The position numbers and the translations under genes were made by a program. Positions 23,364 through 24,345 of a stretch of 25,237 nt of DNA are shown here, piece by piece (positions within the stretch are counted from its first letter, which is position 1; each line of letters begins with the position of its first letter). This DNA is from a virus (lineage: Duplodnaviria > Heunggongvirae > Uroviricota > Caudoviricetes), in the IMG/VR virus record IMGVR_UViG_2706794662_000005; one strand, written 5' to 3'. The notes under the pieces were generated by a model. The model was not told the DNA's origin and made no database searches. It was given only the letters and a program-made list of their open reading frames with translations.

Positions 23364-23417
23364 TGGCCGTTTCCGGCCTGCATGGCATGATTTGCGCTTT
23401 TGGACGGGAGATTCAGC

Positions 23418-23706
23418 GTGCTGATTGGCTATGTAAGGGTATCAACAAATGACCAGAATACAGACCTGCAACGAAACGCTCTTGTTTGTGCAGGATATGA
23501 ACAAATATTTGAAGATAAATTAAGCGGAACAAGGACAGGCCGACCTGGATTAAAACGTGCTTTAAAGCGCCTTCAAAAAGGTGACGCACTGGTTGTCTGA
23601 AAACTGGACTGACTGGGTCACTGTATGCGGCATCTTGTCGTGCTGGTGGTGGAAGCCTAGAAAAAGTATCGGGTGTTGCTGAACCGTGTTGATACATCAA
23701 CTGCAC
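23418..23706 (+). pseudogene. Pin/Gin-family serine invertase, 5' copy with in-frame stops (decayed or sequence-error-affected)
   Basis: LIGYVRVSTNDQNTDLQRNALVCAGYEQIFEDKLSGTRTGRPGLKRALKRLQKGDALVV is intact and holds the catalytic-serine motif. It is followed by TGA where Trp is expected (23598-23600) and TGA where Arg is expected (23610-23612), then diverged [8 protein letters not shown]-like sequence, TAG at 23658-23660 and a small deletion. Start is GTG 23418 or ATG 23400. Confidence 0.55.
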
Positions 23707-23956
23707 NNNNNNNNNNNNNNNNNNNNNNNNNNNNNNNNNNNNNNNNNNNNNNNNNNNNNNNNNNNNNNNNNNNNNNNNNNNNNNNNNNNNNNNNNNNNNN
23801 NNNNNNNNNNNNNNNNNNNNNNNNNNNNNNNNNNNNNNNNNNNNNNNNNNNNNNNNNNNNNNNNNNNNNNNNNNNNNNNNNNNNNNNNNNNNNNNNNNNN
23901 NNNNNNNNNNNNNNNNNNNNNNNNNNNNNNNNNNNNNNNNNNNNNNNNNNNNNNNN
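23707..23956. other. assembly gap (N-run, 250 nt)
   Basis: Run of n characters within the invertase locus. Confidence 0.99.
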
Positions 23957-24345
23957 GGCGAAGCATGAAACATCTGATTTCTCTCGTCGGGGAACTACGG
24001 GAGCGAGGAATTAATTTTCGCAGTCTGACCGACAGCATAGATACATCTTCTCCAATGGGGCGTTTTTTCTTCCACGTGATGGGTGCCCTGGCTGAAATGG
24101 AACGTGAATTAATTGTTGAACGTACACTGGCCGGACTGGCGGCAGCACGCGCACGGGGGCGCACAGGCGGACGTCGACCGAAGCTGACAAAAGAACAGCA
24201 TGAGCAAATAGCAAGGCTGATCAAAAACGGGCACGACAGAAAACAACTGGCAATAATTTACGGCATTGGTATATCGACGATTTATCGTTACCACCCCGCA
24301 GGAGAATCAATCGGAACAATAGAGAAGAGTCAGGAAACAAAATAA
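23957..24345 (+). CDS. Gin/Hin/Pin-family DNA invertase, C-terminal part (5' end in gap)
   Basis: ...RSMKHLISLVGELRERGINFRSLTDSIDTSSPMGRFFFHVMGALAEMERELIVERTLAGLAAARARGRTGGRRPKLT... followed by a C-terminal HTH region, a strong match to serine invertases. It covers residues also represented, in decayed form, before the gap. Confidence 0.88.

Follow-up and report, generated by a model that had tools for sequence, protein, structure and literature searches.

The window, by which we mean the whole stretch of 25,237 nucleotides analysed here (IMG/VR record IMGVR_UViG_2706794662_000005, Caudoviricetes), is, as judged by sequence comparison, a P88/P2-like E. coli prophage with a Mu-type invertible tail-fibre segment. 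The closest phage record was Escherichia phage P88, a P2-like phage of the genus Xuanwuvirus, with 94% nucleotide identity (over 91% of window positions 19000–25237). The window has the same gene order as P88, namely H, tfa, tfa', Sv', invertase, gpU, and tape measure (Table 1). The closest complete genome was FDAARGOS_943 (NZ_CP065615.1), to which window 17275–23608 aligned at 99.8% and window 23957–25168 at 100%. In FDAARGOS_943, the invertase is a single 195-aa gene with Sv' on one side and gpU on the other, and its protein contains Resolvase and HTH_7 domains (Pfam). A gpU gene (PF06995, Phage_P2_GpU) adjoins the invertase in every related locus.

The invertase gene is uninterrupted in P88 and FDAARGOS_943, unlike that of the window. 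Compared with these two relatives, the window carries 340 extra positions, counted as 98 nt of sequence from a prophage remnant and 250 N: between 23608 and 23957 it has 348 positions (98 real bases and the 250 N), against only 8 nt between the equivalent positions of FDAARGOS_943.

Table 1. Features of the tail-fibre and invertase region of the window.
Feature	Coordinates	Strand	Basis or remark
Left 26-bp crossover site (gix-like), within tail-fibre gene H	20263..20288	-	TTCCTGTAAACCGAGGTATTCGATAA; 2 mismatches to the right site
Invertible segment, ~3.05 kb, Mu G segment-like	20289..23337		ORFs, Caudo_TAP, Mu identity, reference annotation
End of H and tfa	within the invertible segment (tfa 21268-21828)	+	ORFs, Caudo_TAP
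tfa' and Sv'	within the invertible segment (tfa' 21857-22390, Sv' from 22393)	-	ORFs, Caudo_TAP
Right 26-bp crossover site	23338..23363	+	exact match TTCCTGTAAACCGAGGTTTTAGATAA
Authentic 5' end of the prophage Gin-type invertase gene	23418..23496	+	identical to the reference prophage; 100% to Mu gin
Invertase part of a paralogous dead gene	23497..23649	+	every diagnostic position of the NCTC86 ompW-locus type
3' fragment of a tfa gene (in the remnant, joined to the dead invertase)	23650..23706	+	Caudo_TAP; NCTC86 annotation as tfa fragment
Scaffold gap, 250 N	23707..23956		one of four N-runs in the window
Authentic 3' part of the Gin-type invertase, codons 67-195 and stop	23957..24345	+	FDAARGOS_943 100% over 23957-25168
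P2 gpU-like tail gene	24381..24875	-	ORF; conserved, to the right of the invertase

The left part of the window is a mosaic relative to FDAARGOS_943, with 91.8% identity over 287–1788, an indel of ~780 nt at ~1800 (about 1788–1810), and no alignment for 6470–7031 (about 6469–7032). In the early region, window ~5200–6150 corresponds to L004 22611–23886, where the closest reference, a P2-like prophage, has annotated ParM-like and partition/stability genes next to a replication endonuclease gene.

The invertible segment and likeness to known invertases

The two crossover sites lie in inverted orientation and bound a segment adjacent to the invertase gene. For the crossover-site pattern, 0 matches were expected by chance, and the right site is one base off the homologous Mu site. 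An inverted repeat (I3) has its arms at 20259–20323 and 23303–23367. Within the segment, two tfa genes accompany the two alternative tail-fibre C-termini, and window 20256–24137 (the segment and the invertase to about codon 126) showed ~91% nucleotide identity to the S/U/U'/S'/gin region of Mu. Host-range switching of this Mu G type is well established for P88-like prophages.

The intact protein orthologous to the window's invertase (PF00239, E = 1.3e-50) matched the Mu Gin structures 3UJ3 and 4M6F at E values of about 1e-100, and its first 103 residues are nearly identical to those of Mu Gin; the 3UJ3 chain has Ala at the position of the catalytic Ser9. At the DNA level, the prophage gene and Mu gin did not differ over the first ~110 nt (100% identity); they were 95–97% identical to ~nt 220, but only ~50–60% identical in the 3' third, which encodes the C-terminal DNA-binding part. 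The locus also differs from Mu in that it lies in a P88/Xuanwuvirus-type prophage beside gpU and the tape-measure gene, not at the Mu genome end, and in that the window's gene is interrupted by foreign sequence and a gap. Pin of e14 (pinE), from the P-segment system of E. coli K-12, belongs to the same family and is ~77% identical to the intact protein.

Invertases of the Gin/Hin/Cin/Pin family depend on a Fis-bound recombinational enhancer inside the 5' coding region, with two Fis sites ~48 bp from each other. The Hin enhancer lies ~100 bp from the hix crossover site (PMC3798978), and an equivalent enhancer would by analogy fall at ~23440–23530 here. Pairs of G-N13-C motifs with a spacing of 48–49 bp were found in this region (23439–23453 with 23488–23502, and 23463–23477 with 23511–23525), in a motif that is too degenerate and too frequent to be distinctive. 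A putative enhancer in the 5' region of the invertase, which the original prediction had put forward for the conserved start of the gene, is plausible and fits the family, and it has no bearing on the question of duplication.

The invertase frame on the two sides of the gap

The serine-invertase frame before the gap opens with a GTG at 23418, not at 23400 as first proposed, and its first 60 codons are intact (VLIGYVRVSTNDQ...GDALVV), with the nucleophilic Ser9 of the YVRVS motif present (VLIGYVRVSTNDQ). The two in-frame TGA codons that had been predicted were both found, the first (23598–23600) at the position expected for Trp61 and the second (23610–23612) at that expected for Arg65. A third in-frame stop, TAG at 23658–23660 (codon 81), had been missed. 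All of these stops lie within ~110 nt of the end of the contig at 23706, which is the edge of a multi-copy repeat. The conceptual protein encoded before the gap matched PF00239 (Resolvase) over residues 3–83 with an E value of 6.9e-22.

The sequence that follows the TGA codons had been described as a diverged, partly deleted version of the invertase region MRHLVVLV...DTSTP. We found that from 23650 onward it is actually the 3' end of a tfa gene. The same conceptual protein of the remnant matched Caudo_TAP (PF02413) with its residues 79–105 (profile positions 104–130 of 131, E = 3.8e-12), the Tfa-like tail before the gap matched the C-terminus of the window's own Tfa (residues 161–185, BLASTP), and the nucleotide identity to another tfa 3' fragment was 95.9%. 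The resemblance of DTSTA to DTSTP was coincidental. Similarly, the description of the 5' copy as Pin-like did not hold, as its first 60 codons are Gin-like and only codons 69–77 (23623–23649, MRHLVVLV) are of the e14 Pin type, with an exact 27-nt match to pinE; outside this stretch, the frame is Gin-type and not Pin-type. As read from the bases, the frame before the gap is a mosaic of a Gin-like part (the first ~64 codons), an e14 Pin-like part (codons 69–77), and a tfa 3' end.

After the gap, an open frame at 23959–24345 (RSMKHLISLV...QETK, then a stop) overlaps residues already covered before the gap, which agrees with the original description of an intact Gin-like 3' part. The stretch from 23957 to the stop encodes the last part of the catalytic domain together with helix E and the HTH_7 DNA-binding domain. 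A Pfam search with window 23959–24342 returned Resolvase (E = 8.6e-21) and HTH_7 (PF02796, E = 5.8e-14), and this part also matched the DNA-binding domain of Hin (1HCR). With the 250 N counted, the two parts do not share a reading frame (distance 541 nt, offset +1). An uninterrupted invertase ORF of ~190 aa was not found in the window, where stops at codons 61, 65, and 81 and the 250-N run break the frame.

The three other N-runs, at 12757–13026, 15568–15839, and 17025–17274, comprise 270, 272, and 250 N, respectively. The corresponding reference segments measure 288, 277, and 264 nt, which gives differences of 18, 5, and 14 nt, and they are GC-rich (58–63% GC compared to 52.9% overall); the flanks of the three runs are 99.8–100% identical to the reference. 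We therefore rejected the N-runs as one-to-one masks of real sequence, since their lengths are off by these amounts despite near-identical flanks. The length differences, two of which (5 and 14 nt) are not multiples of three, indicate that the N-runs are estimated scaffold gaps rather than exact masks; the 14-nt difference falls within the baseplate V gene and would shift its frame. Judged by this comparison, the 250-N run at the invertase is no faithful count of missing bases. Its length fits no model, and a reference-like structure would need about −90 nt, that is, an overlap. The value of 250 may be a floor of the scaffolder, two of the four runs being exactly 250.

Relationship to the prophage remnant at ompW

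We compared the window position by position over 22900–23706 with the FDAARGOS_943 prophage and with a locus of NCTC86 at ompW, and found no private bases in the window. All diagnostic positions up to 23465 are of the FDAARGOS_943 prophage (P2-reference) type, and all those at 23497–23706 are of the NCTC86 ompW-locus type, with 100% identity in both parts. The switch point lies inside a run of 31 nt (23466–23496) that is exactly common to the two loci. Window 23497–23608 is thus a Gin-like 5' region with the SNPs of the remnant, and 23520–23706 is 100% identical to five NCTC86-lineage records.

The NCTC86 sequence (1598903–1599229) is a dead invertase–tfa fusion in a lambdoid prophage remnant at ompW, which RefSeq annotates as a 'recombinase family protein' (WP_071598134.1) and a partial tfa. 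It has the same stops and the same invertase/tfa junction (23649/23650) as the window. The gene order in NCTC86 is J, lom, stf, tfa, tfa', partial stf', partial recombinase, partial tfa, and a hypothetical ORF, followed by a SAM-dependent methyltransferase gene, a truncated ompW, yciE, and yciF, and the same layout was seen in another strain. In complete genomes, the remnant adjoins the methyltransferase gene and the truncated ompW, and never the gpU of a P2-like prophage as in the window. The remnant, covering at least 80% of 23300–23706, was present in 531 of the 5,426 complete E. coli genomes (~10%), and the second TGA is common to most of these 531.

Sequencing errors that gave rise to stops in an otherwise intact single gene (the original prediction had listed contig-end errors) would fit the position of all the stops within ~110 nt of the contig end. 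However, 23497–23706, with both TGA codons and the TAG, is identical to the NCTC86 remnant, the second TGA recurs in most remnant-carrying genomes, and the tail is tfa rather than corrupted invertase. The stops are real alleles of the five NCTC86-lineage records (100% identity), by which this explanation is refuted, and we give it a negligible chance.

Two side observations concern the neighbourhood of the remnant. Directly downstream of it, where the lambdoid prophage ends at ompW, tfa 3' fragments flank a class I SAM-dependent methyltransferase gene (L001 3500–4168; L005 8280–8948) that resembles moron-like cargo. On the upstream side of the orphan remnant, the tfa/tfa' pair is oppositely oriented in L001 (944–2129) and L005 (6940–5757), with 86% identity, and the segment beside the dead invertase may be inverted, now or formerly, by invertases supplied in trans.

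The ends of the contigs in the window coincide with repeat boundaries, both on the side of 23706 and on the side after the gap. The sequence just downstream of the 23706 equivalent is multi-copy (median of 2 places per genome, maximum 8), and the contig after the gap begins 8 nt beyond the divergence point of the prophage gene and the remnant. In the unrelated draft GCA_000488775.1, the remnant forms a 376-nt contig between two 100-N gaps and ends 12 nt past the 23706 equivalent. An exact-protein look-up with the 66-aa ORF pointed to a sole other draft, L025, with 6 mismatches. Co-residence of the two loci in one genome is documented by NZ_CM142695.1, which has the remnant at 0.87 Mb and, ~3.1 Mb away, the Gin-type gene at 4.0 Mb.

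The invertase locus in related genomes and the origin of the junction

The arrangement of the window was searched for in several collections. In the 5,426 complete E. coli genomes, there was no full-length match to 23300–23706 or 23330–23706 above 98.3–98.4%. The 193-nt hybrid junction was absent from viral contigs and metagenome contigs, and a 58-nt pattern specific to the remnant type (23491–23548) had no match in the genome contig collection. We also examined ten assemblies encoding an identical 678-aa tail fibre. Seven of them kept the invertase, in every case as a single intact 195-aa gene with 8 nt between the flanks of the gap, and the other three had lost the segment and the invertase gene. 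No contiguous assembly carried two invertase copies at this position.

Because the identity is bipartite at 100% and 100%, the switch lies in a shared repeat, the contig ends are bounded by repeats, and the relatives have a single gene, the apparent decayed first copy is very likely a repeat-induced chimeric contig end, that is, an artefact of short-read assembly. Among the possibilities raised by the original prediction, a collapsed or chimeric assembly of paralogous invertase genes is the one that the bipartite identity supports. Two tandem copies with one pseudogene, which it had also raised, are at odds with a tail before the gap that is another locus, the ompW remnant, base for base.

The real locus would then be an ordinary P88/P2-like tail-fibre switch, in which one intact 195-aa Gin-family serine invertase flips the ~3.05-kb G-like segment between the two 26-bp sites. 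By analogy with Gin and Hin, this invertase would need Fis and an enhancer in the 5' end of its own gene. The source genome would also carry the lambdoid ompW remnant, with a crossover site of its own and the fusion of a dead invertase 5' fragment with a tfa 3' end, and the two loci would share an exact repeat of the crossover site, the enhancer region, and the invertase 5' end. We infer that the short-read assembler crossed this repeat, took the wrong branch, and ran 210 nt into the remnant (23497–23706). It would have halted at the next repeat, that of tfa, and the scaffolder would have attached the right downstream contig, filling the interval with Ns whose number is not reliable. Gene conversion of the prophage gene by the remnant was considered and rejected, as a conversion tract would need its end point in tfa or methyltransferase sequence, and neither is homologous to the 3' part of the invertase.

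Another IMG/VR record, L018 (IMGVR_UViG_2695420708_000013), has the arrangement expected of a real tandem, in which an inserted remnant module (crossover site, dead invertase, tfa fragment, hypothetical ORF, and methyltransferase gene) separates the invertible segment from the intact invertase of the prophage itself. It contains an identical copy of 23330–23706 followed by the remnant's methyltransferase gene, a second crossover site, an intact Gin-type gene, and gpU, the last part being 100% identical to window 23957–25168. However, the junctions of L018 are single N characters (reverse-complement positions 1594 and 6670) placed exactly at the boundaries between P2-like and lambdoid-like sequence, and past the second N, ~180 nt already present in the contig before it come up again, as typically happens when a scaffolder joins contigs across a repeat. 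In none of the complete genomes do methyltransferase, crossover site, and intact invertase follow one another in this order; a tandem would need a gap of ~1,109 nt and not 250; and all seven related assemblies that kept the invertase have one gene. With its single-N joins and no complete-genome support, L018 was rejected as proof of a tandem, and we regard a tandem in the window as very improbable.

The Ns of L018 place a ~5-kb lambdoid block (tail-fibre, remnant, and methyltransferase genes) inside a P2-like prophage. L018 is probably the product of the same paralogue-driven mis-scaffolding, in a second draft genome with both loci. Should its arrangement be real, for which we see a very small chance, a P2-like prophage has captured a lambdoid remnant module. 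There would then be two directly repeated right crossover sites, each with an enhancer-bearing invertase 5' region, and one left site, so that a single Gin-type enzyme could pick between two inversion end-points in a three-site tail-fibre switch. In a weaker variant, the orphan remnant would owe its persistence to a crossover site and an enhancer that let the invertases of other prophages flip its tail-fibre segment in trans.

The hybrid junction could also be a real recombinant between the P2-like prophage and the ompW remnant, formed by homologous recombination in the shared 5' region or by the invertase at identical crossover sites, and resulting in a chromosomal inversion or rearrangement in all cells or in a subpopulation; only the scaffold link would then be wrong. 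Gin-family enzymes act in trans on related sites, and the crossover site at 23338–23363 is identical in the L001 remnant, with two positions differing in the NCTC86 remnant (L005). If an L018-type allele is taken as the comparison, the switch point may lie anywhere in 23330–23496, the crossover site included. On the other hand, DNA invertases strongly prefer closely spaced inverted sites in one supercoiled domain with the enhancer in cis. The scaffold still joins the contig before the gap to the 3' part of the invertase and gpU, and the junction is absent from complete genomes. A contig end 210 nt past a repeat, with a gap behind it, is what mis-traversal of an assembly graph usually leaves. 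Such a recombinant is unlikely, and the chimeric contig end remains our preferred reading.

Because E. coli prophages share invertase 5' ends, crossover sites, and tfa 3' ends as near-identical repeats, short-read assembly can splice paralogous loci, and spurious pseudogenes or duplications can then appear at scaffold gaps. The same artefact may turn up in any genome in which a P2-like prophage of the Gin type and an ompW-site remnant co-occur; the hybrid is also present in the second draft, L018.

Two further variants of the switch were observed in related prophages. In L027, L031, and L032 (e.g., CP026836.1), an insertion of ~1.26 kb at the equivalent of window 23353–23356 encodes an IS3-family transposase (HTH_Tnp_1 and rve) and sits in the outer half of the right crossover site, with a 4-nt overlap suggesting target duplication. 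This insertion should block inversion, and the invertase gene is still intact. In L026, L029, and L035 (e.g., UGBG01000002.1), which have the identical tail fibre, tfa', Sv', and the invertase are all gone and a 63-aa tfa fragment directly abuts gpU, so that the tail fibre is locked in one state.
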